A DNA stretch of 64,000 bases from assembly GCA_035505375.1 (NCBI GenBank), contig DATJQV010000075.1:83393-147392 (forward strand). Reading direction: 5' to 3'. Under the pieces are notes generated by a model. That model was not told the DNA's origin. It did not search any database and saw nothing but the letters and a program-made list of their open reading frames with translations. Position 1 is the stretch's first letter, and each line of letters begins with the position of its first letter. Of this stretch, positions 25,043-59,470 are shown piece after piece. This DNA comes from a bacterium. Its GTDB lineage: Bacteria; Hydrothermota; Tepidihabitantia; Tepidihabitantales; Tepidihabitantaceae. Position numbers and translations under genes: made by a program.

Positions 25043-25060
25043 GGCCGGTTTCTTCGGGGG

Positions 25061-32684: not shown

Positions 32685-32689
32685 CTTGC

Positions 32690-32735
32690 ATTCGGCACTC
32701 TGGATTCTGGTCTCTGAATTCTGGATTATCCGGGC
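32690..32735. repeat. MITE-like repeat fragment in the 60-bp spacer between the two DUF3857 paralogs
   Basis: CTGGATTCTGGTCTCTGAATTCTGGATTATCC is the reverse complement of the CAGAATTCAGAGACCAGAATCCAG module. Confidence 0.5.
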
Positions 32736-32744
32736 TTGCATTGC

Positions 32745-34685
32745 CTACTCCTCTACCGGCTTCAGCATCACGTGCTGCCGCTCAATCTCCTCGGTCGCGG
32801 CCAGGAGACTGCGCAGGCTCTGGTATTCGGCCACCCGCACCAGCGGGTCTTTGAGCCGGAACCAGGCTTCGTTGGTAAGCTGGTTGCCTTTGACCTTGGT
32901 CTCGGACTTCGCCTCGAACTTGTCGGACGCCTGCTCCAACGAGTCGGGCACGAGCACGGTCTTGAAGCTCTTGGGCAGGGTCAGCTGGTGAACCATGTGC
33001 CAGGTATAGGTGGAGTGGAAATCGATGTCGTACTTCCGTGCCGGCATCGACGAGGCCCAGGCGAAGGCGTTCGAGGTGAACATGCCGTTGCCCGCCTTGG
33101 GCAGGGTGAAGCGGATCGTAGATTTGCGATTGCCGGTTTTCGATTTGAGAACGGTGGCGAAGTCAGGCACCGAGAAGTGGAGCTTCACGACGAGCGGCTG
33201 GTTCAGGTCGCGCGGGTCGGTCATCGCCAGCGTGTCGAGATGTGCGTCGGGCCCGAGCACGTGGAGATAGTTTTCGTAGCGCTGCTTTTGCTGCTGCGGC
33301 GGCAGATACTGGGCGAGCGAGCGCAGGCCGAATTCCTGCTCACCGATCGGGACAAGAACGGCGACGCCGGAGAGCGAACCGTCAGGCGCGAGCGTGTCGT
33401 CGATGCGCACGTCGAGCCGGTTCGAGTCCGCCGGGATGAACGGCGTGTAGCGCAGGCCGTCACCCGCTTTGGTCGCGACCAGCACCCCGCGGTTCATCTC
33501 CGAGGCTGCGTAATACTGGCGCGAATTCTCGGCCGTCGGGTCGAGGTAGTAGATGCTCCCGTCAGCCCGCTTCACCGCCACGGTCGAGTGGTTGAACTGG
33601 TCCACCGGCAGTTCGGAGTCGGTCTGGGTCTCGCCGTTGGTCAGGGTGATGTAGGCGTCGACGCCGGCGTGGCGCAGCATGCCGGTGAGCAGCGCGGCCT
33701 TGTCGCGGCACACGCCGTAGCGCTTCTGATACGTCAGGCTTATCTTCTCCGGCTGATACCCGGCCTTCTTACCCGAGTAGGATGTTTCCACGTAACGGAT
33801 GCGCTGGTTCACGAAGTTGTAGAGCGCGCGGACTTTCGCATCCTCGGTCTTCGCGCCGGCAGTGAGCGAGTCTATGGCGCGGCCTAAGGCCGAATCCACA
33901 TCGTACTGGGTGGAGGAGAGGTTGTAGAACCAGCGGGACCAGGTCTGCCAGTCCGGCTGGGTGCAGATGAACAGCCGCGTCATCGACTCGCCGTACGGCA
34001 TCATCGGCTCGTAGACCAATTTGGGAACGTCGTGCGCCGACCACGTCAGGCGCTGGCGCTTGCCATTCACCGTGAAGTTCGTGTCCACGCTGCCGGCCTT
34101 GACCAGCCAACGCAGCTTCAAAGTGGTCGGAGCGTCGAGGGTATACGCCACGGACAGCAACGGGTCGCCCCCGCTGAAATACTCCTCGTTGTCGTACTGG
34201 CCGTCCATTACCGGGTTGAACGTGACGTCCTCGGTTATCCACTCGACCGACGAGCCGAGCGCGAGTCCGGGGAACTGGATGGACTTCACCCGCACGTTGG
34301 GCAGCACGAATTTCGACCCTTCCTCCAGCGGCATCGGCACGTCCACGATGTCGGACTTCGCGACATTCGTGACCTTGCCGTCGGGCGCTATCACCCGGGC
34401 CAGCTTTACGTCGGCCGTCGAATAGGTCAGGCAGTACCCATCCTCGGGCGTGGCGTATTCCTGCTTGCCCTGCTCGGTCAATATCTTCACCAGCCGGTGC
34501 TCGCGGGTCACGTTCCGGCCGTCGGCCTGGAGCGTGACGAGCGTGGAATCGAACACGATGACCGCGTTCGCGTCCGGGTATTTCGCAAGCGTGATGCCTT
34601 TCAGCAGCGCCACCGGCGGCGCGGCTGCGGCCGCGATGCTTGCGAGGAGCGCAAGAGCCGATACGAGCTTGTTGATTCGAGTCAT
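32745..34685 (-). CDS. DUF3857 + transglutaminase-like cysteine-protease domain protein (secreted), paralog 2
   Basis: Signal peptide MTRINKLVSALALLASIAAAAA. Transglutaminase-core motif RYGVCRDKAALL. Confidence 0.65.
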   Translation of the reverse strand: MTRINKLVSALALLASIAAAAAPPVALLKGITLAKYPDANAVIVFDSTLVTLQADGRNVTREHRLVKILTEQGKQEYATPEDGYCLTYSTADVKLARVIAPDGKVTNVAKSDIVDVPMPLEEGSKFVLPNVRVKSIQFPGLALGSSVEWITEDVTFNPVMDGQYDNEEYFSGGDPLLSVAYTLDAPTTLKLRWLVKAGSVDTNFTVNGKRQRLTWSAHDVPKLVYEPMMPYGESMTRLFICTQPDWQTWSRWFYNLSSTQYDVDSALGRAIDSLTAGAKTEDAKVRALYNFVNQRIRYVETSYSGKKAGYQPEKISLTYQKRYGVCRDKAALLTGMLRHAGVDAYITLTNGETQTDSELPVDQFNHSTVAVKRADGSIYYLDPTAENSRQYYAASEMNRGVLVATKAGDGLRYTPFIPADSNRLDVRIDDTLAPDGSLSGVAVLVPIGEQEFGLRSLAQYLPPQQQKQRYENYLHVLGPDAHLDTLAMTDPRDLNQPLVVKLHFSVPDFATVLKSKTGNRKSTIRFTLPKAGNGMFTSNAFAWASSMPARKYDIDFHSTYTWHMVHQLTLPKSFKTVLVPDSLEQASDKFEAKSETKVKGNQLTNEAWFRLKDPLVRVAEYQSLRSLLAATEEIERQHVMLKPVEE

Positions 34686-38078: not shown

Positions 38079-38240
38079 TTGACACGTGAGGGAGAATCGT
38101 GTCTAATCAGAAGGTCGGACACGAGCCCGGTGGTTGAGATGGCCGTGCGAGCTCGAAGCCGACGTCCGGCTGCAAGGGGAGGCCGGTCGGACGCCACATA
38201 AGCGATGAAGCCTCCAACTGGTTCTCTATGAGGAGGAAAG
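38079..38240 (+). promoter_or_regulatory. promoter (TTGACA-17-TCTAAT) plus conserved ~125-nt leader of paralog A
   Basis: The leader shares the core GCCGAC(A/G)TCCGGC(T/C)GCAA(G/C)(A/G)GGAGGCCG...CGCCTCC with the four downstream paralog leaders. Confidence 0.55.
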
Positions 38241-41078
38241 ATGCGCAAGACTGTGATGGCTATCATGCTCTCAATGGCGATGCTGGCAACAGCAGGCCTC
38301 GCGAACACCGCGACCGGCACAGCCGGAATGCCCAATCGGAGCCCGGTCATTCGGCCGATCCCGAAGCCGATCCCGGTGGTGCAGGCGCACGCTCCGGCCC
38401 TTTCCATCGCCAACACCACACTCATCCACTGGGACAAGTTCTATGACCGGCACGGCAACCCACTGCCGGCGGGCGCGCCGGAGGACGTCAGCCCAGACTC
38501 GCTCTACTGGAAGGACCTTAACAGCTCCATCTATCTGAAGTCGTCGGCGAAGGTCGCTAGTCCTTCCCCGGCCAACCGTTCAGCCATGTCGTTCCCGGAC
38601 GGTCAGTCCACGGTGTGCATGGACCCGGTCGGCAACTATGTCTACGAGGCAGATGGGGACACACTGTATCGGTTCAGCACGGTTGACGGTTCGATGACGA
38701 CATACACCCTGGCAGATAGCGGTGGATCCGGATGCGCGACCGACGGCCAGTACATTTACTGTCCGAACGGCACGACCATGTACAAGTACACGATGAACGG
38801 GAACTACGTCAGCTCAACCACCACGGACTACACCTGCGATGCTTACTCGATATCCTGCTGCCGGGATACGGTCTGGTTCACCAACGACCGGTACAACGGA
38901 GTGACCCTCTACGGCTATGCCTGCTCGAAGTTCACCGGCGGCAGCATCACGCACGACGCCACCTGGAACGTCGGCACCGGCACCGACGGAGTGGGCAATG
39001 TCGCCTGGGACGGCGTCTACTACTACCTCCCCTGGATTGGCACGAGGCCCATCACGTTCAAGAGATTCTATGCGGACCGGACACTCTACTCGAGCGGCAC
39101 CGTGAGCATCGACTCGCGCGGGGTGATGTGCTCGGTGCAGGGAGCGCGGTCGACGGCGCAGGATTCGCTCTACTGGAAGCTGAATTCCAGCACGACTAAC
39201 CTCTACTCGTCGCCCAAGGCGCAGGAAGTAACCGCGGCCCAGGCCTCGCCGTTTGCCTGGCAGAACAGCCAGACGATATCCTGCATGACCCCGGACGGGC
39301 TGTACATGTTCGAGGTCTACGCCAACAACATGCGCCGGACCAATCTCGCTACCGGCGAGGTAATCAATTACGCCCTTGCCGACTCCAGCGGCGGCGCGTG
39401 CGGAACCGACGGCCAGTATGTCTACGTCCCGAAGGGCACGATGACACGCAAGTACAATTTGACCGGCTCGCTCATCAGCACGACCACTACTGATTACGCA
39501 CCGGTGTTACTTGCCAGCACCTTCGGCTTTGGCGTAGCCAACGACACGGTGTGGCTGACACCAGTGGATACGGGCAAGACCTGGTACGGCTATGCGTGCT
39601 CGAAGTTCACTGGCGGCAGCATTACCCACGATGCGATGTGGTCCACTGTTGGCGGCGCTGTGACTGCGATGACCGTGACTTGGGACGGACAATACTACTA
39701 CATGTGCTGGGGCGGCCACCCCGCTGATACGCTCCTGCGCTTCTACCGCGACCGCACGCTCTACTCGACCGGTACGGTAACCGGCGACGCTCGCAGCGTC
39801 ATGTGCAAGGCGGGGAGCTACCCAGTGATGCTCTGCGAGGCCACCTCCTATCCGGATCACGTCGCGAGTTTCAGCCTGATGCTCGTGGACTCCTCCGGTG
39901 GCAAGTTCGCGGCGGCTGACACGTACCACATCGGCACCAGCGGGCATGACGCGTTCCCGGCTACTGATTGGTACAACCACGGCTACCGCGCGATAATGAC
40001 TTTCACCGACCAGACCCCTACGGATCCGTCCGGTCTGGGCGACAGCATGGCACGGTTCATCCAACTGGGCGGTGGCGTTGTTGAGGCCACATTCTCGGAC
40101 TGCACGAACTGGCAGATAACCGGTAACTGGCGCTTGATGTACGCCCCATTCACAGTGCAGAGCGCGTCCTTCTCTTCGGGCACCATGGGAACGGTGCACC
40201 AGCCGCTCCATCCGGTCATGCTCGGCGTGTCCGCGCTCAGTGTAGGCGACTACCGCAGCGGCAACACCGACAGCACTCTGCGCGGCCAGCATTCAGTCTG
40301 TCTCTCCGAGTATACTGACGGCAACATATGCCTTGCCGCGTGCTTCGATAGCGCGGGTCAGCGTGCGCTCTCGATCGGCATGGACCCCATGGATTACTGG
40401 ATCACGCCCACCACCGGCCAGTGGTGCAGGCTGATGGTGAACGCACTTGACTGGGTTGCGGTCGGGCCCAGCGTGGGCGTGACCGCGCCGAATGGCGGCG
40501 AGACCTGGGATGTCGGCTCGGTCCACAATATCACCTGGACCCAGACCGCCAACGGCGTCAGTGATTCTATCTACTACTCGACCGACGGCGGTGCGAGCTG
40601 GACCGGCGTGACCTGGTTCGCCGCTCCGCCGAGTCCGCTCCAATACGCCTGGACCGTTCCCAACGATACCACCAAGCAGGCCCAGGTGAAGCTTGTGACC
40701 TGGAATTCGGACGGCGGCAGGGTCGAGGACGCAAGCGACGCCGACTTCACGATCGCGCCGCCGATGGCAGTCGAACAGCCTCGGAACAGCGCCTTGCCGC
40801 TGGTGTTCGCGCTGCATCAGCCCCAGCCGAACCCGGCAACGTCAGGCGCAACAGTCCGCTACGACCTGCCGCGACCGGCGCAGGTCGAGCTGAGCATCTA
40901 CGATGTGTCCGGCGCGCTGGTGCGGCGGCTCGTGCGCGGAGCGCAGACCGCCGGTTACCGGAGCGCGTACTGGAACGGGACCGACAGTCGCGGCCGTGCC
41001 ATCGCGCCCGGCGTGTACTACTGCCGGTTCACGGCCGGCGACTCTCATGCGACACAGAAGCTGGTCGTGCGGAGATAG
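38241..41078 (+). CDS. large secreted T9SS-sorted surface protein, paralog A (internally duplicated N-module)
   Basis: Signal peptide. Two copies of the WDKFYDRHGNPLP...CSKFTGGSITHDA module. A GPI-anchor-like/Ig module (TAPNGGETWD...SIYYSTDGGASWTG). C-terminal sorting domain (RYDLPRPAQVELSIYDVSGALVRRL...GVYYCRF). Confidence 0.7.
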   Translation: MRKTVMAIMLSMAMLATAGLANTATGTAGMPNRSPVIRPIPKPIPVVQAHAPALSIANTTLIHWDKFYDRHGNPLPAGAPEDVSPDSLYWKDLNSSIYLKSSAKVASPSPANRSAMSFPDGQSTVCMDPVGNYVYEADGDTLYRFSTVDGSMTTYTLADSGGSGCATDGQYIYCPNGTTMYKYTMNGNYVSSTTTDYTCDAYSISCCRDTVWFTNDRYNGVTLYGYACSKFTGGSITHDATWNVGTGTDGVGNVAWDGVYYYLPWIGTRPITFKRFYADRTLYSSGTVSIDSRGVMCSVQGARSTAQDSLYWKLNSSTTNLYSSPKAQEVTAAQASPFAWQNSQTISCMTPDGLYMFEVYANNMRRTNLATGEVINYALADSSGGACGTDGQYVYVPKGTMTRKYNLTGSLISTTTTDYAPVLLASTFGFGVANDTVWLTPVDTGKTWYGYACSKFTGGSITHDAMWSTVGGAVTAMTVTWDGQYYYMCWGGHPADTLLRFYRDRTLYSTGTVTGDARSVMCKAGSYPVMLCEATSYPDHVASFSLMLVDSSGGKFAAADTYHIGTSGHDAFPATDWYNHGYRAIMTFTDQTPTDPSGLGDSMARFIQLGGGVVEATFSDCTNWQITGNWRLMYAPFTVQSASFSSGTMGTVHQPLHPVMLGVSALSVGDYRSGNTDSTLRGQHSVCLSEYTDGNICLAACFDSAGQRALSIGMDPMDYWITPTTGQWCRLMVNALDWVAVGPSVGVTAPNGGETWDVGSVHNITWTQTANGVSDSIYYSTDGGASWTGVTWFAAPPSPLQYAWTVPNDTTKQAQVKLVTWNSDGGRVEDASDADFTIAPPMAVEQPRNSALPLVFALHQPQPNPATSGATVRYDLPRPAQVELSIYDVSGALVRRLVRGAQTAGYRSAYWNGTDSRGRAIAPGVYYCRFTAGDSHATQKLVVRR

Positions 41079-41124
41079 CGGGCGTGTAGACAGCAGACAG
41101 TAGACAGGATACAGCACAACGGTC

Positions 41125-41153
41125 GGGGCGAGCTTCGGCTCGCCCCTTGGTTT
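41125..41153 (+). terminator. GC hairpin + T-tract terminator after paralog A
   Basis: GGGGCGAGC-TTCG-GCTCGCCCC followed by TTGGTTT. Confidence 0.55.
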
Positions 41154-41203
41154 GACACCGGCCGCGCGAGGCGTGCAGAGCCCGAATCACCGACTGGTCT
41201 GGC

Positions 41204-41366
41204 TTGACAGCATAGGGACGCGAGTGTTTAATGAGACACGCTCGCACGAGCTCGGTGGTCGAGATTGGCCACCGCTGGTCTGCAGCCGGCGTCCGGCTGC
41301 AAGAGGAGGCCGACCGGACGTCGCACAGGCGTTGTCGCCTCCAGTTCGGTTCGCCAAGGAGGAAGA
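41204..41366 (+). promoter_or_regulatory. promoter (TTGACA-17/18-TTTAAT) plus conserved leader of paralog B
   Basis: Near-identical to the other four leaders. Confidence 0.55.
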
Positions 41367-43517
41367 ATGCCCAAGACGGTGATAGCTCTGATGCTACTAG
41401 TCGTGACGCTCGCCCCGACCGGGTTGGCGGCTACGACCGGACTGACCGCGAACCCGGTTTCGGAAGCTTCAGTTCAGTCTACCACTGGCCCGACCTGCCA
41501 GGCCGCAAGGCAGGCATTGGCCTCAGCACCCGCGCGCGCAGTTGTTCACTGGGAAAGGTCCTACGACCGACACGGCAACCCGCTGCCGGGTGGGCCGCAG
41601 GAGAACGTCGGCACCGACTCGCTCTACTTCAAGAACTACTACTCGCTGACGGCCCTGTTGGGTAGCCCTAAGTCGGAGGTCCCGAATCCAACCCCGGAGA
41701 GCTGCGGGCCGGCGTTCGCATGGCAGCTCAACCAGACCTCGGTCGGGATGGACCCGTTCGGCAACTACTGCTACGAGGTGTACAGCACCACGCTGCGCCG
41801 GACCAGCACGGCTGACGGCAGCCACACGGACTATACTATCGGACACGGTTACTGGGCGTGCGGCACTGATGGCAGCTACGTCTATGCACCGGTCGGCGAT
41901 ACAGTCTTCAAGTACACGCTGACCGGCACGTTGGTGAGCTCGACACTGCTCGACGTTACTCCGACATGGTACGAGTTCTCGGTGGCGAACGACACCGTCT
42001 GGTGCGCCCCCGGAGACAGCATACTGCATGGCTACGCCTGCTCGAAGTTCAGCGGCGGTTCGATAACGACCGACGCGACCTGGAACGTCGGTGCCGGCAC
42101 CAATACTCCGGCGCTGGTGGGGTGGGATGGCCGCTACTACTACGTATCCTGGGACGGGCAGACGTCAAATACCTTCAAGCGGTTCAACGCCGACCGGACC
42201 CTCTCGGCCAGCGGGATGATCAGCATCGACACGCGGGGCGTGATGTGCAAGCGGGGTAGCTACGGGGTGAAGGTCTGCCATGGCTCGTGGCATCCTTCCT
42301 ATCTGGCGAGTCTGCGTCAGATGCTCCTCGACTCCTGCGGCGGGAAGTTCGCAGCGGTCGACACGTACGACATTAGCTTAGGAGCCCACGCCACGTTCCC
42401 GGCGACCGAGTGGTATGACGGTGGCTATCGGGCGATACTGGTGTTCACCGACGACAATCCCCAGGATTCCATCGCGCTGGGCGATTCCCTCGCGCGGTTC
42501 ATACAGCTCGGCGGCGGCGTGGTTGAGGCCGTATTTGCGGACCAGCCCAAAAACGACGTCCGGGGTGAGTGGCGTTCCGTGTATGCTCCATTCAGCATCG
42601 AGAGCACGTCCTACTCTGCCGGGTCCATGGGCACGGTACATCAACCGCTACACCCGATAATGACGGGAGTCTCCGCACTGACGGTCGGCAGCTTCCGCAC
42701 TGGCAACAAGCCCGGCACGCTGCGTAGCGCCAACTGCGTGAGCCTGGCGGAGTACACGGACAACAACTGTGTCGCCACCTGCTTTGACAGCGCGGGCCAG
42801 CGGGCCGTCTCCCTTGGCACAAACCCGGAGGTGTACTGGCTCTCGTCGGCTTCCGGCCAGTGGTGTCGGCTGATGGTGAACGCGCTCAACTGGACTGCGG
42901 TCGGGCCCAGCGTGGGCGTGACGGCGCCGAACGGCGGCGAGACCTGGGATGCCGGCACGGTCCACAACATCACCTGGACCCAGACCGCCAACGGCGTCAG
43001 CGACTCGATTTACTACTCGACCGATGGCGGTTCATCCTGGATTGGTGTGACTTGGTTCGCCGCACCGCCGAGCCCGCTCCAGTATGCCTGGACAGTCCCG
43101 AATACACCGAGCACACAGGCTCGGGTCAAGGTTGTGACTCGGGACGCGGACGGCGGCAGGGTCGAGGACGCAAGCGACGCCGACTTCACGATCGCGCCGC
43201 CGATGGCACTCGAACAGCCTCGGAACAGCGCCTTGCCGCTGGTGTTCGCGCTGCATCAGCCGCACCCCAACCCGCTGGCGTCGGGTGCACAAATCCGTTA
43301 TGACCTGCCGCGCCCAACGCAGGTCGAGCTGAGGATCTACGACGTGTCGGGTACGCTCGTGCGGCGGCTGGCGGGCGGAGCGCAGACCGCCGGTTACCGG
43401 AGCGCGTACTGGAACGGGACCGACAGCCGCGGCCGGACGGTCGCGCCTGGTGTGTACTACTGCCGGTTCACGGCCGGCGACTTCCGCGCGACACAGAAGC
43501 TGGCCGTGCGGCGGTAA
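41367..43517 (+). CDS. large secreted T9SS-sorted surface protein, paralog B
   Basis: Start at ATG 41367 after an AAGGAGG RBS, where the signal peptide MPKTVIALMLLVVTLAP begins. Same domain order as A, D and E. Confidence 0.7.
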   Translation: MPKTVIALMLLVVTLAPTGLAATTGLTANPVSEASVQSTTGPTCQAARQALASAPARAVVHWERSYDRHGNPLPGGPQENVGTDSLYFKNYYSLTALLGSPKSEVPNPTPESCGPAFAWQLNQTSVGMDPFGNYCYEVYSTTLRRTSTADGSHTDYTIGHGYWACGTDGSYVYAPVGDTVFKYTLTGTLVSSTLLDVTPTWYEFSVANDTVWCAPGDSILHGYACSKFSGGSITTDATWNVGAGTNTPALVGWDGRYYYVSWDGQTSNTFKRFNADRTLSASGMISIDTRGVMCKRGSYGVKVCHGSWHPSYLASLRQMLLDSCGGKFAAVDTYDISLGAHATFPATEWYDGGYRAILVFTDDNPQDSIALGDSLARFIQLGGGVVEAVFADQPKNDVRGEWRSVYAPFSIESTSYSAGSMGTVHQPLHPIMTGVSALTVGSFRTGNKPGTLRSANCVSLAEYTDNNCVATCFDSAGQRAVSLGTNPEVYWLSSASGQWCRLMVNALNWTAVGPSVGVTAPNGGETWDAGTVHNITWTQTANGVSDSIYYSTDGGSSWIGVTWFAAPPSPLQYAWTVPNTPSTQARVKVVTRDADGGRVEDASDADFTIAPPMALEQPRNSALPLVFALHQPHPNPLASGAQIRYDLPRPTQVELRIYDVSGTLVRRLAGGAQTAGYRSAYWNGTDSRGRTVAPGVYYCRFTAGDFRATQKLAVRR

Positions 43518-43556
43518 GCAGACAGCATTCAGTAGGCAGTAGACAGGATACAGGTC

Positions 43557-43579
43557 GGGGCGGCCTGCGGGCCGCCCCT
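43557..43579 (+). terminator. GC hairpin terminator after paralog B
   Basis: GGGGCGGCC-TGCG-GGCCGCCCC, preceded by a TAGACAG repeat array. Confidence 0.5.
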
Positions 43580-43707
43580 GACCGTCATGGCGGCGTTGAT
43601 AAGAAGGGAGCGGTGCACGGTCCACGGTGTACGGTTCACGGATAGCGGCCTGAGGCTTGAGCTTGTGCTTGAGCTGCGACGCAGTCGCCATGGCGGGGCT
43701 GGCTTTG

Positions 43708-43865
43708 CTTGACAGCTTGTCGTGCTGGGTGTTTAATGAGGCGGCTTTGCACGAGCGCAGCGGTAGGAATCGTCTGCTACCGGCTCGCAGCCGACATCCG
43801 GCCGCAACAGGAGGCCGGCCGGACGCCGCAAGAGGAGTTCCGCCTCCGGTCATCGGGGAGGATAT
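43708..43865 (+). promoter_or_regulatory. promoter (TTGACAGC...TGTTTAATGAG) plus conserved leader of paralog C
   Basis: Shares the SD-like GGAGGC, the anti-SD-like GCCTCC and the true SD GGGGAGG triad. Confidence 0.55.
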
Positions 43866-46322
43866 ATGCTCAGAGTGAGGATGTTCCTTGTGGCAGTGCT
43901 CGCTGCCGTCGGGTTCGCGGCAACGACCGGGTTGACCGCAAGGCCGGTTTCAAGCACGGCCATTCAGCCTAATCCGACGTCCGTGATGCACGGCGTGGTC
44001 GCGGGAGGTGAGCGTCCGGTTGTTCACTGGGACAGGTTCTACGACCGGCCCGGCGGCCCGCTGCCCGCCGGCCTGCCGAGGAACGTCAGCACGGACTCGC
44101 TCTACTGGAAGCTGTACAGCAGCACCACATACCTCTATTCATCACCCAAGGCGGATAGCGTGACCCCGGGCGACTCAACGGCGTTAGCCTGGCAGAACGA
44201 GCAGACCATACCGTGCATGACCCCGGACGGCCACTACGTCTTTGAGGTGTACGCCTTGACCATGCTGCGCACCAATCTGACTACCGGCGCGGTGGATACC
44301 TTTGCCCTCGCCGATGCAAGCGGCGGCGCGTGCGGCACCGACGGTCACTACGTTTACGTCCCGAAGGGTACCACGACGCGCAAGTACACACTTGACGGAG
44401 CCCTGGTGAGCGCTACCACGACCGACGACTCGTGCTGGGTCGCCGCCAGCACCTTCGGCTTTGGTGTGGCCAACGACACGGTGTGGCTTACCCCGTCCAG
44501 CGCGGGCACGACCTGGTACGGCTATGCCTGCGCCAAGTTCGTCGGCGGCAGTATCACCCACGACGCGACGTGGCCCACGATTGGCGGCTCGGGTGATGCG
44601 ATGTCCTTGACCTTCGACGGCCAGTATTACTTCATGACCTGGGGCGGCTACGCCAAGGATACGCTCCTGTGCTTCTACAAAGACCGTACACTCCACTCGA
44701 CCGGCACGGTGCACGCCGACGCCCGGAGTGTGATGTGCAAGACGGTTGGCTACGGAGTCATGATCTGCCACGGCTCGGGAAACCCCTCATACGTCGGCGG
44801 ACTGGGTCAGATGCTTGAGGATTCATCCGGCGGGAGGTTCGCGGCGGTCGACACCTACTTCATCGGCACCGGTGGACACGCCACGTTTCCGGCCACGGAC
44901 TGGTATGACCTCGGCTATCGGGCGATACTGACGTTCACAGACTACTCTCCCGAAGATGCGGCCACGCTGGGCGACAGCCTCGCCCGATTCATTCAACTGG
45001 GCGGCGGCGTTGTGGAGGCCACATTCGCGGATGCCTCCGGCTATCAAATCGCCGGGAATTGGCGCTCCACGTATGCGCCTTTCACCGTCCAGAGCGCCTC
45101 CCTCACTCCCGGCACGATGGGCACGATCCACCAACCGCTCCACCCGGTGATATCGGGTGTGTCGGCAATCACCATGGACAACTTCCGCACCGGCAATACA
45201 CCCGGCACCCTGCGCAGCACCAGCTGCGTCGGCCTGGCTGAGTACACGGATAGCCACTGCCTCGTGGCATATTTCGACAGCGCCGGCCAGCGTGCCGCCT
45301 CCCTGGGCATGTTCCCGCTGACGTACTGGCAGGATACGGCCGCCGGTCAGTGGTGCCGGCTGATGGTGAACGCGCTCAACTGGGCTGCAGTCGGGCCCAG
45401 CGTGGGCGTAACCGCGCCGAACGGCGGCGAGAGCCTGTATGCCGGCACGGTCCACAACATTACCTGGACCCAGACCGCCAACGGAGCCAGTGATTCAATC
45501 TACTACTCGACCGATGGCGGTGCGAGCTGGACCGGCGTAGCCTGGTGCGCCACTCCGCCGACGCCGCTCCAGTACGCCTGGACCGTTCCGTTCGCGCCGA
45601 CCACGCAGGCCCGGGTCAAGGTTGTGACCTGGGATGGCGACGGCGGCAGAGTCGAGGACAAGAGCGACGCCGACTTCACCATCGTGGTGCCGTCCCACGA
45701 CGTCGGCGTGACCCAGATAATCCAGCCGGTAGACACGGTTGACTCGGGCATGGTCGTCGTGCCGACTGCGGTGGTGAAGAACTTCGGCGGCGTACAAGAG
45801 ACTTTCCCGGTGCGATTCAGCATCGGTGGCAGCTACACGCACGACACGACGGTGACAGTCGGCTCGGGCGTGACCGACACCGTCGCCTTCCCCCAGTGGG
45901 TGGCCGGTCCGGTCGGCACGTTCGAGGTCCGCTGTTCGACCCGGCTGGGGTCGGACGTAAACAATGCCAACGACCGGGCCACGGACACGGTTGTGGTGAA
46001 GCCGTCAGGCGGCATTGAGCAGTCGAAGAACAACGCTTTGCCTCGGGCGTTCGCCCTGCACCAGCCGTACCCTAACCCGCTGGCGTCGAGTGCGCTAATT
46101 CGATACGACCTGCCGTGCCCAACGCAGGTCGAGCTCAGGATCTACGACGTGTCGGGTACGCTCGTGCGGCGGCTGGTCGGCGGAGCGCAGACGGCCGGTT
46201 ACCGGAGCACGTACTGGAACGGGTGCGATGACCGTGGCCGGATGGTCGCGCCCGGCGTTTACTACTGCCGGTTTGCAGTAAGCGACTTCCGCGCGACACA
46301 GAAGCTCGTCGTGCGGAGATAG
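43866..46322 (+). CDS. large secreted T9SS-sorted surface protein, paralog C (with CARDB-like domain)
   Basis: Signal peptide. Conserved family modules. A CARDB-like domain (HDVGVTQIIQPVDTVDSG...NNANDRATDTVVV). C-terminal sorting domain. Confidence 0.7.
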   Translation: MLRVRMFLVAVLAAVGFAATTGLTARPVSSTAIQPNPTSVMHGVVAGGERPVVHWDRFYDRPGGPLPAGLPRNVSTDSLYWKLYSSTTYLYSSPKADSVTPGDSTALAWQNEQTIPCMTPDGHYVFEVYALTMLRTNLTTGAVDTFALADASGGACGTDGHYVYVPKGTTTRKYTLDGALVSATTTDDSCWVAASTFGFGVANDTVWLTPSSAGTTWYGYACAKFVGGSITHDATWPTIGGSGDAMSLTFDGQYYFMTWGGYAKDTLLCFYKDRTLHSTGTVHADARSVMCKTVGYGVMICHGSGNPSYVGGLGQMLEDSSGGRFAAVDTYFIGTGGHATFPATDWYDLGYRAILTFTDYSPEDAATLGDSLARFIQLGGGVVEATFADASGYQIAGNWRSTYAPFTVQSASLTPGTMGTIHQPLHPVISGVSAITMDNFRTGNTPGTLRSTSCVGLAEYTDSHCLVAYFDSAGQRAASLGMFPLTYWQDTAAGQWCRLMVNALNWAAVGPSVGVTAPNGGESLYAGTVHNITWTQTANGASDSIYYSTDGGASWTGVAWCATPPTPLQYAWTVPFAPTTQARVKVVTWDGDGGRVEDKSDADFTIVVPSHDVGVTQIIQPVDTVDSGMVVVPTAVVKNFGGVQETFPVRFSIGGSYTHDTTVTVGSGVTDTVAFPQWVAGPVGTFEVRCSTRLGSDVNNANDRATDTVVVKPSGGIEQSKNNALPRAFALHQPYPNPLASSALIRYDLPCPTQVELRIYDVSGTLVRRLVGGAQTAGYRSTYWNGCDDRGRMVAPGVYYCRFAVSDFRATQKLVVRR

Positions 46323-46366
46323 TAGGGAGTAGACAGCAGACCGTAGACAGTAGACAGGATACAGGT

Positions 46367-46389
46367 CGGGGCGGGCTTCGGGCCGCCCC
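46367..46389 (+). terminator. GC hairpin terminator after paralog C
   Basis: GGGGCGGGC-TTCG-GGCCGCCCC. Confidence 0.5.
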
Positions 46390-46505
46390 TGACCGTCATG
46401 GCGGCGTTGATAAGAAGGGAGCGGTGTACGGTTCACGGATGAAGGCCTGAGGCTTGAGCTTGTGCTTGAGATGCGACGCGGTCGCTATGGCGGGGCTGGC
46501 TTTGC

Positions 46506-46663
46506 TTGACAGCGTATGGACGCGGGTGTTTAATGAGGCGGCCTTGGACGAACGCGGTGATCGGAATTGTCTGCCACCGGTTCGCAGCCGACATCCGGCC
46601 GCAACAGGAGGCCGACCGGGCGTCGCGCAAAGAATCCCGCCTCCGGCTAATCAGAGAGGGAAG
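46506..46663 (+). promoter_or_regulatory. promoter plus conserved leader of paralog D
   Basis: TTGACAGCGTATGGACGCGGGTGTTTAATGAG, then the same leader core. Confidence 0.55.
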
Positions 46664-49162
46664 ATGCCCAGAGTTGTGATAGTTCTGGTATTCAGTGCCG
46701 CGATGTTGGCCACGGCCGGATTCGCCAGCAACAATAGTCTCACCGCGGCGGGCGCCAGCCCGCTTGCTCGGTCGACCCCCGCGCCAAACCCGGCGTCTGC
46801 GGCGTGGGCCGCGCTTCCCGGGAACGCGGGTCCGACGACCATTCACTGGGACAAGTTCTACGACCGGTCCGGGAAAATGCTGTCCGGCGGCCGGGGAGAG
46901 GCGGTTGGCGCCGAATCGCTCTACTGGAAAGACTACAACGACTCTGCCCACCTGAAGTCGTCGCCGAAGGTCCAGAATCCGTCTCCGACCAATCGGACGG
47001 CGATGGCGTTCCACGACCAGCAGTCCACCACGTGCATGGACCCGACCGGCGACTATGTCTATGAGGTAGGCGGCACCAGCCTGTACCGGTACAGCACGGT
47101 TGACGGTTCAATGATGACCTACACCCTTGCATACACGGGCGGGATTGGCTGCGCGACCGACGGCCAGTACATTTACCGGCCGCGCGGCGCCAGCAGCAAG
47201 ACCATCGACAAGTACACGATGACCGGGACCTTCGTCGACTCGACCACAACTGACGTGAGCTGTGACGCATACTCGATATCCTGCTGCCGGGACACGGTCT
47301 GGTTCACCAACAATCGGTCCAGTCCCGTGACTCTTTACGGCTACGCCTGCTCCCGGTTTGCCGGCGACAGCATCAACTACGATGCCACGTGGGACGTCGG
47401 CTCCGGTAACTCCAGCGTCGGCCCGGTTACGTGGGACGGTTACTACTTCTATCTGACCTGGATCGGCACGACCAACGCTACGTTGAAGCGGTTCTACGCC
47501 GACCGGACGCTCTATTCGACCGGCACGGTAAGCATCGACCCGCGCGCCGTGATGTGCAGGAAGAGCGCGTCGTTCAAGGTGCTGTTCGCCGGGACCGAGG
47601 GCGACAATCCTACCCTTCAGGCCCAAATCGTGAGCGCTTCGGGCGGCCAGATAACCTCGGTCGACTACTTCGCCGCGCGCAACGGGCCCCTGCCGGCGTA
47701 TGCTCTCTACCAGCAGGGCTACCGGGTGATAATAACCTTTGGCGGCAACTACCTCTGGGGCAGCGGCGACATATTCGGCGACAGCCTGGCGGCGTTCGTT
47801 GACCTGGGTGGTGGGGCGCTGAATATGACCTATACGACATGCGCCGGTGGCGACTGGTGTATCGGCGGCCGGTACAAGGACCAGTACATGCCGGTGCCGA
47901 CCGTGACCTATGACAACGTCCACTGTCCTTCAATTACCATCCTTGATTCGCTACACCCGATAATGAACGGGGTCACGGCAATCGGCAACTTCACGTGCGA
48001 GCCCTACACGATGGACGTTCGCTCTCCGACATACTCCGTGCGGCTTGCGAACTGGGACGTCACCAATTCCTACATCGAGTGTGCTGCGTTCGATTCCGGC
48101 GGCAGGCGCACCGTGTTCCTCGGCTACCACCCGAACTACAACCCGGGCGGGACCGGCCAGTGGCTCACCCAGCTCGTCAACGCCCTGATTTGGATGGGCA
48201 ATCCGGTTCTCGACGCGAATGTGACCGTGCCGAATGGCGGCGAGAACTGGGTGACCGGTTCGGTCCACAACATCGCGTGGAGCCAGACCAGCAATGGCAT
48301 CAAGGACTCGATCTACTACTCGACCGACGCCGGCGCGAGCTGGACCGGCGTGGCCTACTATGACCCGCCGCCGGCACCACTCCAGCATGTCTGGACCGTT
48401 CCGTCCACGCTGACCTCGCAGGCGCGGGTGAAGGTAGTGACCTGGGACACCGCCGGCGTCAGAGTCGAGGACGCGAGCGACTCCGACTTCACTATCGCGG
48501 CGCTGGTCCACGATGTCAGTGTCCTGCAGGTTATCCAGCCGGTGGACACGGTGGACTCCGGTACGACCGTGGTGCCGACTGCGGCGGTGAAGAACTTCGG
48601 CCAAGTGCAGGAGACCTTCCCGCTCCGGTTCAGCATCGGCGGTTTCTACACAGCCGACACATCGGTTACAATCGACCCCGGCATGACCGACACCGTCGCC
48701 TTCCTCCAGTGGGTGGCCGGTCCGGTCGGCGCGCACGCGGTCCGTTGCTCAACACGCCTGGATTCAGACCAGAACAGTGACAACGACTATACAGCGGGCA
48801 TGGTCGTTGTCGTGCCGCCGCCGCCCGGCATCGAGCAGTCCAAGAGCAGTGCATTGCCGCGAGTGTTCGCGCTGCATCAGCCCCGGCCGAACCCGTCAAC
48901 GTCGGGGGCGCAAATCCGCTACGACCTGCCGCGGTCGGCGCACGTCGAGCTGAACATCTACGGCGTGTCGGGTACGCTCGTGCGGCGGCTGGTCGGCGGA
49001 GCGCAGACGGCCGGTTACCGGAGCGCCAACTGGAACGGGTGCGATGACCGTGGCCGGATGGTCGCGCCCGGCGTGTACTACTGCCGGTTCACGACCGGCG
49101 ACTTCCGGGCCGGGCAGAAACTGGTCGTGGGAGATAGTAGGGAAGTAGACAGCAGACGGTAG
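46664..49162 (+). CDS. large secreted T9SS-sorted surface protein, paralog D (with CARDB-like domain)
   Basis: Start at ATG 46664, where the signal peptide MPRVVIVLVFSAAMLATAG begins. The N-module is closest to paralog A. Confidence 0.7.
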   Translation: MPRVVIVLVFSAAMLATAGFASNNSLTAAGASPLARSTPAPNPASAAWAALPGNAGPTTIHWDKFYDRSGKMLSGGRGEAVGAESLYWKDYNDSAHLKSSPKVQNPSPTNRTAMAFHDQQSTTCMDPTGDYVYEVGGTSLYRYSTVDGSMMTYTLAYTGGIGCATDGQYIYRPRGASSKTIDKYTMTGTFVDSTTTDVSCDAYSISCCRDTVWFTNNRSSPVTLYGYACSRFAGDSINYDATWDVGSGNSSVGPVTWDGYYFYLTWIGTTNATLKRFYADRTLYSTGTVSIDPRAVMCRKSASFKVLFAGTEGDNPTLQAQIVSASGGQITSVDYFAARNGPLPAYALYQQGYRVIITFGGNYLWGSGDIFGDSLAAFVDLGGGALNMTYTTCAGGDWCIGGRYKDQYMPVPTVTYDNVHCPSITILDSLHPIMNGVTAIGNFTCEPYTMDVRSPTYSVRLANWDVTNSYIECAAFDSGGRRTVFLGYHPNYNPGGTGQWLTQLVNALIWMGNPVLDANVTVPNGGENWVTGSVHNIAWSQTSNGIKDSIYYSTDAGASWTGVAYYDPPPAPLQHVWTVPSTLTSQARVKVVTWDTAGVRVEDASDSDFTIAALVHDVSVLQVIQPVDTVDSGTTVVPTAAVKNFGQVQETFPLRFSIGGFYTADTSVTIDPGMTDTVAFLQWVAGPVGAHAVRCSTRLDSDQNSDNDYTAGMVVVVPPPPGIEQSKSSALPRVFALHQPRPNPSTSGAQIRYDLPRSAHVELNIYGVSGTLVRRLVGGAQTAGYRSANWNGCDDRGRMVAPGVYYCRFTTGDFRAGQKLVVGDSREVDSRR

Positions 49163-49183
49163 ACAGTAGACAGGATACAGGTC

Positions 49184-49205
49184 GGGGCGGCCTCCGGGCC
49201 GCCCC
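49184..49205 (+). terminator. GC hairpin terminator after paralog D
   Basis: GGGGCGGCC-TCCG-GGCCGCCCC. Confidence 0.5.
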
Positions 49206-49327
49206 TGACCGTCATGGCGGCGTTGATAAGAAGGGAGCGGTACTCGGTCCACGGTGTACGGTTCACGGACAGCGGCTTGAGCTTGTGCTTGAGCTGCGAC
49301 GCAGTCGCTATGGCGGGGCTGGCTTTG

Positions 49328-49486
49328 CTTGACAGCGTATGGAGGCGCGTGTTTAATGAGGCGGTCTCGCGCGAGCGCGGTGGTCGGAATTGTCTGTCAC
49401 CGGCCCGCAGCCGACATCCGGCCGCAACGGGAGGCCGACCGGACGCCGCGAGATGAGTTCCGCCCCCAGTCCAGCAGGGAGGATGT
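49328..49486 (+). promoter_or_regulatory. promoter plus conserved leader of paralog E
   Basis: TTGACAGCGTATGGAGGCGCGTGTTTAATGAG, then the same leader core. Confidence 0.55.
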
Positions 49487-51922
49487 ATGCGCAGAATGCC
49501 CGTGTTTCTTGTCTCGGTGCTCGCCTTGACTCCGCTCGCGACCGGCCTGATCGCAAAGCCGGTTTTAAGCACAGCCATTCAGTCTGCTCCGAGGCCCGCA
49601 GGGCAGGCGGTGGTCGTAGAACCAGCGCGTACTGTTGTTCAATGGGACAGGTTCTACGACCGACATGGGAACCCGCTGCCGGAAGGGTCACAGGAAGACG
49701 TCGGCACCGACTCGCTCTACTTCAAGCAGTACAACGTGACCGATATCCTCTACGGGTGCCCCAAGTCACAGGCCCCGAATCCGACTCCGGCCGACTGCCG
49801 GCCGGCGTTTGCGTGGCAGAATAGCCAAACGGTGGCCTGTATGGACACGGCGGGCGTCTATGCCTACGAGGTCTACAACACCAACCTGCGGCGGACCAAA
49901 ACGGATGACGGGACGTACACCGATTACACAATCGCCAACGGATACTGGAACTGCGCGACCGACGGTGACAACCTTTACGTCCCGGTCAGCAACGTCGTGT
50001 ATAAGTACACGTTCACCGGGACCCTGGTTGATTCCACGGCCCTCGACATTACTCCGGCGTACTACGAATTCTCGGTAGCAAACGACACTGTCTGGTGCGG
50101 GACCGGTTCCGACACGATCCTCAAAGGTTACGCCTGCTCGAAGTTCACCGGCGGTTCGCTAACGCCGGACGCCACGTGGGACGTGGGCGCCGGCACCGCA
50201 TCCCCGGCCCAAGTCGCCTGGGACGGCCAGTACTACTACGTTTCCTGGGCGGGGTACGCCTCCAACACCTTCAAGCGGTTCAACCCTGACCGAACCCTCT
50301 CGGCCAGCGGGACGATAAGCATCGACACGCGCGGCGTGATGTGCAGGAAGAGCGGTTACACGGTCATGATTTGCTTCGCCGACCCGTACTTCTACGATGT
50401 TGACAGTCTGGGGCAGATGCTGGCGGACTCATCCGGCGGGAAGTTCACAGCGGTTGACACATACAACATCGCCACGCATGCCACTTTCCCGGCCACGGAC
50501 TGGTACAACAGCGGCTGTCGGGCGATACTGGCGTTCACAAACTACTCTCCCGCGGATTCGGCCGCGTTCGGCGACAGCCTCGCCCGGTTCATTCAACTGG
50601 GCGGCGGCGTTGTGGAAGCACCGTTCGCATCCGACCATGGATCTGAGATCACGGGAGCATGGCGCTCGACGTATGCGCCCTTCACTCTTCAGAACGACGT
50701 CCTGGCTCCCGGCACGATGGGCACCATCCACCAGCCGCTCCACCCGATAATGTCGGACGTGACGGCCCTCTATTTGAGCGACTGGCGCGCGGGCAACACT
50801 CCCGGTACGCTGCGCAGCGCTAACTGCGTGAGCCTGGCCGAATACACCGATAGTTTCTGCGTCGCCGCTTGCTTCGACAGCGCGGGCCAGCGTGCCGCCT
50901 CCCTGGGTTTCTATCCACTGGACTACTGGCGTTCAACTGCCACCGGGCAGTGGTGCCGGCTATTGGTGAACGCGCTCAACTGGACCGCGGTCGGGCCCAG
51001 CGTGGGTGTGACCGCACCGAATGGCGGCGAGAGTTGGGATGCCGGCACGATCCACAACATCACCTGGACCCAGACGGCCAATGGGGTCAGCGATTCAATC
51101 TACTACTCGACCGACGGCGGTGCGAGCTGGACCGGCGTGACCTGGTTCGCCACTCCTCCGGCCCCGCTCCAATACGCCTGGACCGTTCCGTTCACGCCGA
51201 CCACGCAGGCCCGGGTCAAGGTCGTTACCTGGGATGGCGACGGCGGCAGAGTCGAGGACAAGAGCGACGCCAACTTCACCATCGTGGCGCAGGCCCACGA
51301 CGTCGGACTACTGAGTATTATCCAGCCGGTAGACACGGTCGACTCGGGCACGGCCGTCGTGCCGACCGCGGTGGTGAAGAACTTCGGCGGTGTCCAGGAG
51401 ACCTTCCCGGTGCGGTTCAGCATCGGCATGCTCTACACGCATGACACCACGGTGACAATCGCTTCGGGCGTGACCGACACCGTCGCCTTCACGCAGTGGA
51501 TAGCCGGTCCGGTCGGAGTGTTCGTTGTTCGGTGCTCGACCCGGCTGGACGCCGACACCAGCCATGCCAACGACCGCGCCATGGACACGGTCGTGGTGAA
51601 ATCGTCCTCCGGCATTGCTCAGGCCGGGAACGGTGCCCTGCCGCTCGTGTTCGCTCTGCACCAGCCGCACCCGAACCCGCTGGCCACGGGCGCTCATATC
51701 CGCTACGACTTACCGCGGCCGACACAGGTTGAGCTGCGAATCTACGGCGTGTCGGGTACGCTCGTGCGGCGGCTGGTCGGCGGAGCGCAGACGGCCGGTT
51801 ACCGGAGCGCGTACTGGAATGGGTGCGATGACCGTGGCCGGATGGTCGCGCCCGGTGTGTACTACTGCCGGTTTGCAGCTAGCGACTTCCGCGCGACACA
51901 GAAGCTCGTCGTGCGGAGATAA
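49487..51922 (+). CDS. large secreted T9SS-sorted surface protein, paralog E (with CARDB-like domain)
   Basis: AGGGAGG RBS. Signal peptide. The N-module is closest to paralog B. Confidence 0.7.
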   Translation: MRRMPVFLVSVLALTPLATGLIAKPVLSTAIQSAPRPAGQAVVVEPARTVVQWDRFYDRHGNPLPEGSQEDVGTDSLYFKQYNVTDILYGCPKSQAPNPTPADCRPAFAWQNSQTVACMDTAGVYAYEVYNTNLRRTKTDDGTYTDYTIANGYWNCATDGDNLYVPVSNVVYKYTFTGTLVDSTALDITPAYYEFSVANDTVWCGTGSDTILKGYACSKFTGGSLTPDATWDVGAGTASPAQVAWDGQYYYVSWAGYASNTFKRFNPDRTLSASGTISIDTRGVMCRKSGYTVMICFADPYFYDVDSLGQMLADSSGGKFTAVDTYNIATHATFPATDWYNSGCRAILAFTNYSPADSAAFGDSLARFIQLGGGVVEAPFASDHGSEITGAWRSTYAPFTLQNDVLAPGTMGTIHQPLHPIMSDVTALYLSDWRAGNTPGTLRSANCVSLAEYTDSFCVAACFDSAGQRAASLGFYPLDYWRSTATGQWCRLLVNALNWTAVGPSVGVTAPNGGESWDAGTIHNITWTQTANGVSDSIYYSTDGGASWTGVTWFATPPAPLQYAWTVPFTPTTQARVKVVTWDGDGGRVEDKSDANFTIVAQAHDVGLLSIIQPVDTVDSGTAVVPTAVVKNFGGVQETFPVRFSIGMLYTHDTTVTIASGVTDTVAFTQWIAGPVGVFVVRCSTRLDADTSHANDRAMDTVVVKSSSGIAQAGNGALPLVFALHQPHPNPLATGAHIRYDLPRPTQVELRIYGVSGTLVRRLVGGAQTAGYRSAYWNGCDDRGRMVAPGVYYCRFAASDFRATQKLVVRR

Positions 51923-51942
51923 TCAGCAGCCCGTAGTTTGAG

Positions 51943-51978
51943 GGGCGGGACGTCGGCGTCCCGCCCCTTCTTGGTTCG
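51943..51978 (+). terminator. GC hairpin + T-tract terminator after paralog E
   Basis: GGGGCGGGACG-TCGG-CGTCCCGCCCC followed by TTCTTGGTT. Confidence 0.6.
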
Positions 51979-59289: not shown

Positions 59290-59470
59290 TTGGTCTACCG
59301 GTTGCTCTCCGGTTAGCTTCCCCGGTTAGTCTACCCGTTGCTCCACCGGTTCCTCTCCGGGTTGGTCGGAGCGTTGCGGCCCGAGTAGCTCCGCGGGTTG
59401 CTCTCCGCGTTGGTCCCGGAGTAGCTCAGGCCGTTGCTCGCCGAATTGCTCGGAGAATTGCCTCCGGAGT
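59290..59470. repeat. imperfect tandem repeat, ~12-nt unit (CCGGTTGCTCTC-like), ~15 copies
   Basis: Periodic (c)cggttgctc(t/c)cc variants. No spacer-like unique inserts, so not CRISPR. Confidence 0.5.

Follow-up and report, generated by a model that had tools for sequence, protein, structure and literature searches.

The window analysed here, a 64,000-nt stretch of bacterial DNA, carries at positions 38079-51978 five complete open reading frames (ORFs) in tandem, all on the + strand, which we label A-E and which encode proteins of 945, 716, 818, 832 and 811 amino acids (aa). An earlier reading made from the letters alone (the sequence-only reading) had given the same five genes and lengths and had taken them for a variable family of surface proteins. 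The locus thus raises the question of what these proteins are, how the copies came to differ and what the conserved elements between the genes may do. We are confident that A-E belong to a lineage-specific, old and modular family of cargo proteins of the type IX secretion system (T9SS), built by tandem duplication and the shuffling of whole domains, in which the genes are self-contained units. We also consider it probable, with some reserve, that this tandem multigene family is specific to candidate division WOR-3 and its close relatives, that its products are exported by Sec and the T9SS and that they are, in all probability, attached to the surface.

The G+C content of the array (0.61-0.65) is similar to that of the remaining window, in which no further family member was found. 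Proteins B, C and E match public proteins at 100%, annotated as "FlgD immunoglobulin-like domain containing protein", and the closest named relatives are all labelled "candidate division WOR-3 bacterium". Longer TTG-start versions of B (750 aa) and D (902 aa) were ruled out because the additional upstream stretch is the conserved non-coding leader described below; both ATG starts have GGAGG before them and a canonical signal peptide after them.

Domain anatomy of the five proteins

Each protein is shown by our analysis to be a string of autonomous domains, running from a signal peptide through a disordered linker, a cap motif, one or two propellers, a divergent middle module that is ThuA-like (class I glutamine-amidotransferase-like) and an immunoglobulin (Ig)-like domain to an optional CARDB domain and a C-terminal domain (CTD) of the T9SS type (Table 1). 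At the N terminus of all five, a basic n-region is followed by 15-20 hydrophobic residues, read directly from the translations, as expected of a Sec signal peptide. The linker that follows is predicted to be disordered (predicted local distance difference test score, pLDDT, < 50) and leads into the short cap motif W-D-K/R-F-Y-D-R. At the other end, the last ∼95 residues of each protein match the NCBIfam T9SS type A sorting domain TIGR04183, at 37.0, 28.7, 26.6, 24.5 and 24.1 bits and hence above the cut-off of 23, and Pfam FlgD_ig is matched at the C terminus of all five (E = 4e-13 to 2e-9). The signal peptide and C-terminal sorting domain that the sequence-only reading assigned to every copy are both confirmed. 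In D, the usual ...VVRR-stop is lost through a 1-nt difference, and 8 extra codons (GDSREVDSRR) run across the heptamer repeats to the next in-frame TAG (49130-49162).

Pfam and NCBIfam recognize the C terminus of A-E alone; the remaining modules have no Pfam match at E ≤ 0.01, and for the propeller and middle modules no meaningful match appears even at E ≤ 10. The N-terminal modules are shown to be five-bladed beta-propellers, one or two to a protein, which fall into three discrete classes (alpha, beta and gamma). A broad propeller profile matches designed and WD40 propellers (E = 1e-8), and one distant relative matches Pfam Lactonase and SGL. The likeness to the five-bladed propeller of plant and bacterial glutaminyl cyclases (PDB 3mbr and 3nok) is one of fold only (identity 10-11%, no Pfam match), and by sequence the modules do not qualify as members of that family. 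Many polar residues are kept family-wide, and the invariant charged residues of the propeller are, in the numbering of B, E137, R144/R145, D168, K182, D209, D236, D254, R272, D276/R277 and R290.

The middle module has a three-layer alpha/beta fold that can be superposed on ThuA-like structures. It does not reach the gathering score of PF06283 (ThuA), and the middle modules of the window have no match to it at E ≤ 10; 10 of 30 distant relatives match Pfam ThuA at E ≤ 0.1 (best 2.9e-6), so the link to the window modules is transitive. The ThuA-like structure 4jqs is matched by a broad profile of middle modules with marginal significance (E = 0.016), through the motifs "GD.LA.Y..GGGVV" and "NAL.W". 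Residues H429, S374, D392, E462, D474 and R479 are conserved. When the sequences were compared with the Cys-His-Glu triad of class I amidotransferases, no Cys was found after the conserved LGGGVVEA strand, and the conserved H429, C457 and E462 occur in a different order. Unlike known ThuA-like and GATase1-like proteins (PF06283; PDB 1t0b, 4jqs and 4e5v; STM3548, 2gk3; 3rht), the middle modules are predicted to be extracellular and are embedded in mosaics, and they have neither the Cys nucleophile nor the ThuA-type His after the GGG strand.

The Ig-like domain that follows carries an Asp-box. The sequence-only reading had called it "GPI-anchor-like"; the corresponding match (Kre9_KNH) is sub-threshold (E = 0.11 over 22 residues). 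The CARDB assignment of the same reading was right, and the insert is present in C, D and E only. None of the three inserts matches PF07705 at E ≤ 10, so that compared with CARDB proper (PF07705; PDB 3idu) they fall short of the Pfam model; the assignment comes from the CARDB beta-sandwich fold and from homology to recognized CARDB domains. A hidden Markov model (HMM) built from 17 such inserts matches two tandem domains of another protein of the window, encoded at 56297-58942 (-), with E = 1e-21 and 6e-24, and one of these two domains is itself positive for Pfam CARDB. That protein has 881 aa and also carries a T9SS CTD, and the closeness of its two CARDB domains to the three inserts of the array is marked. 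CARDB domains seem to have been exchanged between unrelated cargo genes.

Mosaic history and spread of the family

Pairwise identities place the first propeller of A with that of D (alpha, 71%), the second propeller of A with that of C (beta, 71%) and the propeller of B with that of E (gamma, 70%), against 44-53% for all pairs between classes. These figures bear out the shuffled N-terminal modules of the sequence-only reading, in which A resembled D, B resembled E and C resembled the second module of A. The internal duplication that it saw in A does not hold in that form: its two propellers share 47% identity and are of different old classes, and since orthologs keep the alpha+beta pairing, they are not a recent duplication. 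Among A, B, C and E the middle modules show 61-70% identity, and that of D is an outlier (31-35% vs the others). Of the shared motifs of the sequence-only reading, D is without RFIQLGGGVVEA, HQPLHP and GQWCRLMVNALNW as written and has AFVDLGGGALNM, LDSLHPIM and GQWLTQLVNALIW instead. The Ig and CTD modules are 67-90% identical across all pairs.

Sliding-window identity between D and A is 60-80% over the propeller, falls to 20-37% over the middle module and returns to 60-70% over the Ig domain. Against the metagenomic protein P0027 the profile of D is reversed (27-50% over the propeller, 73-97% over the middle module): the D-type middle module is paired with a gamma propeller in P0027 and with an alpha propeller in D. 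In these profiles the breakpoints are sharp and lie exactly at the domain borders. For the same pair, A and D, the synonymous divergence (dS) is 0.66 in the propeller, 1.63 in the middle module, 0.46 in the Ig domain and 0.40 in the CTD, and such unevenness within one pair of genes indicates that the mosaic reflects history and not protein constraint alone. The paralogs are thus not uniformly divergent, and the mosaic is real. As judged from these alignments, the family is shown to have diversified by tandem duplication, with whole domains exchanged, gained or lost at exact domain borders, so that combinations and copy numbers differ from genome to genome.

We calculated the ratio of nonsynonymous to synonymous substitution (dN/dS) by the Nei-Gojobori method, per module and gene pair. 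It lies between 0.11 and 0.64 for every module and pair, with dS values of 0.3-1.7, and no rapid or diversifying evolution was seen at the module level. By these estimates the paralogs are shown to be old and all modules to be under purifying selection. The sequence-only view of a surface family evolving by duplication and segmental recombination is supported as regards modular duplication and shuffling and not supported as regards rapid or adaptive variation.

A word-indexed search returned ∼59 close homologs, and 61 family members were classified with module HMMs (N, propeller; M, middle module; C, CARDB). They show nine architectures, namely N-M (16 members), N-N-M (12), M-only (10), N-N-M-C (8), N-M-C (7) and N-N (5), with M-C, N and N-C occurring once each. 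Nearly all propellers can be assigned to a class, at 58-95% identity to their own window class vs 44-54% to the others; the second propeller of P0057 is a module without assignment. In ∼55 homologs, all of them from WOR-3 or metagenome bins, these classes are combined in other ways: doubles of both kinds exist (alpha+beta and gamma+beta), and the second propeller of a double is beta except in two N-N proteins (P0053 and P0057). A three-gene array in WOR-3 UBA2258 consists of an alpha+beta double, a middle-only gene and a gamma+beta double; two-gene arrays occur at loci L015 and L136, and P0004, P0024 and P0032 each stand alone, in differing genomic surroundings. Related genomes differ in both copy number and architecture at one syntenic site, which follows EamA-PCMT-PRT-adenine deaminase-LDcluster4-Aldedh: a lone 709-aa gene occupies it in one of them, and a pair of 945 and 496 aa in another. 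No homolog was a single-copy housekeeping enzyme; the homologs are uncharacterized T9SS proteins present in 1-3 copies.

An exhaustive search with a profile of propeller plus middle module yielded 1,610 cluster representatives (50% identity) at E ≤ 1e-3, and 74 at E ≤ 1e-30. Each of the two modules is also found without the other, in mosaic proteins that contain Por_Secre_tail, CARDB, Kelch, DUF4082, dockerin and Peptidase_S8. The propeller is also present in other T9SS mosaic proteins, and the middle module reaches 9 copies in one 4295-aa protein and stands beside Peptidase_S8, Kelch, CARDB or dockerin domains. Modules that are repeated and partnered in this way behave as accessory, binding or structural modules. 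Where the five-paralog alignment was used to search for related loci, the patterns came from the Ig module, and most of the loci returned encode unrelated proteins that share the Ig domain alone. No synteny of the array flanks with other loci was found, apart from a nitroreductase-CTD gene shared with L137; this gene, at 21671-23188 (+) in the window, combines a nitroreductase domain with FlgD_ig and is 83% identical to its counterpart.

Flanking elements and neighbouring genes

Upstream of each gene lies the promoter-like motif GCTTGACA-N17-(GTG)TYTAAT, followed by a leader of 128-134 nt that ends in GGAGG, 6-8 nt before the ATG. The sequence-only reading had given every gene its own TTGACA/TTTAAT promoter; TTGACA-N17-TYTAAT does precede each of them, and it is A that differs, with TCTAAT, the usual hexamer in other species, in place of the TTTAAT of B-E. 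The same promoter-leader unit precedes 10 of 10 further readable family genes, from WOR-3 UBA2258 and five metagenome contigs; within the window neither its motif nor its leader was found at any place other than before the five genes. The 3' half of the leader is near-invariant across species (TCCGGCYGCAA-N1-3-GGAGGCC-N-RCYGG ... GCCTCC ... GGAGG-ATG), and its core, TCCGGCYGCAA-NN-GGAGGCCGNCCGG, occurs 5 times in the 64 kb, always upstream of one of the five genes, vs 0 expected. To judge by this conservation, the promoter-like motif and the leader are shown to be inherited with the gene across species. With a promoter-like motif, a leader and a hairpin at all five copies, each gene is an autonomous promoter-leader-coding sequence (CDS)-hairpin unit, as the sequence-only reading had proposed.

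The leader contains, besides the Shine-Dalgarno (SD) sequence, an upstream SD mimic and an anti-SD element, and the anti-SD CCUCC lies 17-25 nt before the real SD in 15 of 15 leaders from several species. Pairing of CCUCC with the SD is available in 95% of cells and pairing with the GGAGGC mimic in 98%, and a CCGG-rich hairpin can present the SD mimic in its loop (93%). RNAalifold, run on 5 and then on 15 leaders, returned differing structures with no compensatory pairs, and single-sequence folds also differed from one another; two alternative structures drawn by hand are compatible with the sequences but invariant. We claim no leader structure, because the folds disagree and the alternatives show no compensatory pairs. 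Rfam gave no match at gathering thresholds across the window and none at E ≤ 1 for 43500-43880. A metagenome scan with a 16-base leader core proved too unspecific: all 120 returned stretches were without a promoter, and the two with an SD-like context were unrelated coding sequence.

At the 3' ends, TAGACAG-like heptamers form arrays of 3-5 copies after A, B, C and D and are absent after E, so that the claim of such an array in each gene holds for four of the five. Paired heptamers number 12 in the window vs 0.05 expected. They also occur 3' of family genes at L015 and L136, in 3-6 contiguous units by regular expression and ∼11 by eye at L136; they are absent at L001, L012, L137 and L139, four of the seven loci examined, and none was found in 789 kb of unrelated metagenome loci. 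A GGGGCG...CGCCCC hairpin follows 5 of 5 genes, as had been proposed, and the T-rich tail that would make it a terminator is present after A and E only; the terminator scan called the hairpin of A only. One further cluster of heptamers (TAGACAGGATTCAGTAGACAGTAGACAG) lies at 59209-59236, between two divergently oriented genes, the 881-aa CARDB/CTD gene (-) and a NapH-like ferredoxin gene (+), and is followed by a run of CCGGTTGCTC-like short repeats (region 59200-59480). The heptamer is thus not exclusive to the 3' ends of the family.

Identity among the B-C, C-D and D-E spacers is 86-90% and exceeds that of the synonymous sites in the adjoining CDS, and the copies have exact tracts of 47-71 nt in common in the CTD and between the genes. 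Between hairpin and promoter these three spacers (43583-43708, 46394-46505 and 49210-49328), and not the A-B spacer, carry extra micro-repeats: CACGGTN heptamers (for example at 43611-43641) and GCTTGA hexamers just 5' of the -35 element (43655-43675, 46452-46470 and 49275-49295). These could be operator sites or slippage products.

Table 1. Features of the array, in window coordinates (SD, Shine-Dalgarno)
Feature	Coordinates	Strand	Remarks
A promoter-like motif	38079-38107	+	TTGACA-N17-TCTAAT; same position in 15/15 family genes, 7 loci
A 5' leader	38108-38240	+	SD mimic GGAGGCC, anti-SD GCCTCC, SD GGAGG; no Rfam match
Gene A, 945 aa	38241-41078	+	signal peptide; cap motif 38427-38495; alpha propeller 38496-39131; beta propeller 39162-39806; ThuA-like middle module 39807-40478; Ig-like 40479-40754; T9SS CTD 40791-41075
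A heptamer array	41087-41114	+	TAGACAG-like, 4 copies
A GC hairpin	41125-41146	+	followed by T-rich tail, terminator-like
B promoter-like motif	41204-41232	+	TTGACA-N17-TTTAAT
B 5' leader	41233-41366	+	only leader with a notable folding z-score (-2.6)
Gene B, 716 aa	41367-43517	+	signal peptide; cap motif; gamma propeller 41616-42248; ThuA-like middle module 42249-42917; Ig-like 42918-43193; CTD 43230-43514
B heptamer array	43533-43553	+	
B GC hairpin	43557-43578	+	no T tail
C promoter-like motif	43709-43737	+	
C 5' leader	43738-43865	+	
Gene C, 818 aa	43866-46322	+	signal peptide; cap motif; beta propeller 44094-44738; middle module 44739-45407; Ig-like 45408-45683; CARDB 45684-46013; CTD 46035-46319
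C heptamer array	46330-46364	+	5 copies
C GC hairpin	46368-46389	+	no T tail
D promoter-like motif	46506-46534	+	
D 5' leader	46535-46663	+	
Gene D, 832 aa	46664-49162	+	signal peptide; cap motif; alpha propeller 46913-47557; divergent ThuA-like middle module 47558-48220; Ig-like 48221-48496; CARDB 48497-48829; CTD 48851-49159; C terminus longer by 8 codons, within heptamer repeats
D heptamer array	49146-49180	+	overlaps and follows the stop codon
D GC hairpin	49184-49205	+	no T tail
E promoter-like motif	49329-49357	+	
E 5' leader	49358-49486	+	
Gene E, 811 aa	49487-51922	+	signal peptide; cap motif; gamma propeller 49709-50344; middle module 50345-51007; Ig-like 51008-51283; CARDB 51284-51613; CTD 51635-51919
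E GC hairpin	51942-51967	+	with T-rich tail; no heptamer array

In the remaining window, three more genes encode cargo with a T9SS CTD: the nitroreductase gene and the 881-aa CARDB gene described above, and an Omp28/choice-of-anchor-J protein at 60798-62417 (+). Immediately upstream of the array, a 940-aa TPR protein (35154-37976, +) has a C-terminal half that forms a long region of tandem repeats rich in Glu, Lys, Ala and Arg; the repeats, with periods of 42, 63, 84 and 108 nt over ∼36438-37760, give rise to an AT skew of 0.57, and the opposite strand has a spurious 1026-aa ORF. Further upstream are tandem pairs of paralogs, two PMT-family glycosyltransferases and two proteins with DUF3857 and a transglutaminase core (23279-26710 (-) and 30684-34685 (-)), and tandem duplication is common in the neighbourhood of the array. 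A defence island occupies 5859-15556 (-), with a type I restriction-modification system (HsdR at 5859-8861, HsdM at 13430-15556), an Mrr-like endonuclease with HARE-HTH (12374-13312) and a Schlafen/AlbA_2 ATPase (9629-10819); close to it lie a Fic protein (19702-20709) and a ParE-like toxin domain (18178-19029).

Alternative readings and what the locus means

As an exported family of modular T9SS cargo, A-E would bind ligands with their N-terminal propellers, which would be the distal heads; glycans or further polymers outside the cell are plausible ligands, and specificity would differ per class. The ThuA-like, Ig and CARDB modules would form a binding or spacer stalk next to the anchor, and the anchor would be what is left after removal of the CTD by the T9SS sortase. 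A ligand-binding role for these surface proteins is what we infer from this arrangement. The leader may in turn gate translation, with CCUCC pairing either the SD or the upstream GGAGGC mimic; such a translational switch, read from base-pairing potential, is a possibility only. The three further CTD-bearing genes of the window suggest that a T9SS is in use.

Several results weigh against this reading. Architecture is the one ground for the binding-head role; enzymes are the best structural matches of the propeller, in which many charged residues are invariant, as would suit a catalytic role; none of sprA/sov, porV, porU and gldK-N is present among the ORFs scanned in the 64-kb window; and we found no literature that connects WOR-3 with the T9SS or type IX secretion, or that deals with members of the family. 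As to the upstream block, a sigma-70 scan did not call the five promoter-like motifs, whose -10-like hexamer is without the canonical A at position 2, so that "promoter" is here an inference from position and conservation. The leaders show no convincing compensatory changes, since their columns hardly vary, and shuffle controls were not exceeded. Folding z-scores for 7 leaders are -0.3 to -1.2 in five, +0.3 in one and -2.6 in B, mostly no better than shuffled sequence. The conserved structured leader of the sequence-only reading hence keeps its conserved core, found in all genes, and its structure is unproven.

Given the charged residues, the main competing explanation is that A-E are secreted or surface-bound enzymes, with the propeller (glutaminyl-cyclase- or lactonase-like) and/or the ThuA-like domain catalytic and the paralogs acting as isozymes for different substrates, for example where a fermentative WOR-3 bacterium degrades extracellular polymers. 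The many Asp, Glu, Arg, Lys and His residues that do not vary across the propeller classes and in the middle module, a dN/dS of about 0.25, the enzyme-like structural matches of the propeller and its distant relative with Lactonase and SGL matches all agree with it, and ThuA proteins take part in sugar metabolism. We nevertheless hold this explanation to be unlikely, as the identity to any enzyme is only 9-16%, neither module has a meaningful Pfam match, and the site of the class I amidotransferase nucleophile, after the central GGGVVEA strand, has no Cys. Moreover, natural members can do without either module, 10 being middle-only and 5 propeller-only, and elsewhere the middle module is repeated or serves as an accessory to domains that are truly catalytic, such as Peptidase_S8. 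A different proposal takes the array for a contingency or antigenic-variation locus, in which copies are alternately expressed or rapidly recombined to change the exposed surface, for example to evade phages or predators, and the heptamers are slippage or recombination sites. Phase- and antigenically variable loci such as Mycoplasma vlp/vsa and Borrelia vls share with the array tandem surface-protein paralogs, shuffled segments and short tandem repeats at gene borders. Copy number and architecture differ among related genomes at one syntenic site, the heptamer arrays at gene junctions vary in length, the C terminus of D is altered by a 1-nt change adjoining the repeats, and the exact tracts and near-identical spacers are compatible with gene conversion. 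Unlike vlp/vsa and vls, however, the array has no silent cassettes, all five copies being intact and provided with a promoter-like motif and a Shine-Dalgarno sequence; no invertase or recombinase gene is adjacent to it; its repeats lie after the stop codon, outside the CDS and the promoter spacer save for the eight-codon read-through of D; and they are missing at four of the seven loci. The paralogs are old, with dN/dS < 1 throughout, and the three propeller classes are discrete and stable across many metagenomes. We consider a contingency locus very unlikely, and the same observations tell against the "variable" family with a "diversified exposed surface" of the sequence-only reading.

For the upstream block, the alternative is conservation as DNA only, as a promoter with operators of a shared transcription factor, or through gene conversion, so that regulation would be purely transcriptional. 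The near-invariant columns, as for protein-binding DNA, the missing covariation and the insignificant folding of most copies are what this alternative expects, as are the GCTTGA and CACGGTN repeats just 5' of the -35 element and an intergenic identity above that of the synonymous sites of the flanking CDS. It has more difficulty with the position of the invariant core, which lies downstream of the -10-like hexamer and hence would be transcribed, with the perfect SD mimic and perfect anti-SD that recur in every leader and are hard to explain by DNA binding alone, and with a conservation that spans species, beyond the reach of gene conversion within one array. On balance we find conservation as DNA possible though doubtful. 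Among known regulators, SD-sequestering leaders include the RNA thermometers ROSE and fourU and the expression platforms of translational riboswitches; like these, the leaders of A-E contain a CCUCC that can pair with a GGAGG 17-25 nt downstream, and the upstream GGAGGC could compete for it, but they differ in having no covariation, significant stability, Rfam family or known link to a ligand or temperature. It is a speculative and quite unlikely prospect that the promoter-leader block is a new family-specific cis-regulatory RNA, a three-way switch of SD mimic, anti-SD and SD set by temperature, a ligand or an RNA-binding protein, that together with the (TAGACAG)n arrays it could coordinate which surface protein is made, and that the propeller and ThuA-like proteins could form an unrecognized class of surface ligand-capture proteins in an uncultivated phylum.

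The interpretation of A-E as T9SS cargo places them in familiar company. Cargo with a type A CTD (TIGR04183/PF18962/PF13860-like) includes the gingipains of Porphyromonas gingivalis and the SprB/RemA adhesin paralogs of Flavobacterium johnsoniae. Like these, A-E combine a signal peptide, functional domains and Ig-like domains with a CTD of ∼80 aa at the extreme C terminus; several cargo genes share one neighbourhood, and multi-paralog adhesin families are known for the class. They differ in their WOR-3 host, in a propeller family and a ThuA-like branch that belong to no Pfam or NCBIfam family, and in that export is predicted. Tandem mosaic families of T9SS cargo are a known kind, expected in this superphylum, and nothing is overturned. 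What is new are two unannotated domain families, which now have a fold assigned to them, the way in which WOR-3 combines them, and a conserved leader that Rfam does not contain.

To our knowledge, WOR-3 has no cultured, genetically tractable member, and its cell-surface biology can be inferred from sequence only. The array defines two widespread extracellular domain families that serve as exchangeable cassettes in T9SS cargo, which helps to annotate many "hypothetical" proteins in FCB-group metagenomes, and its conserved promoter-leader unit is a concrete candidate regulatory element.

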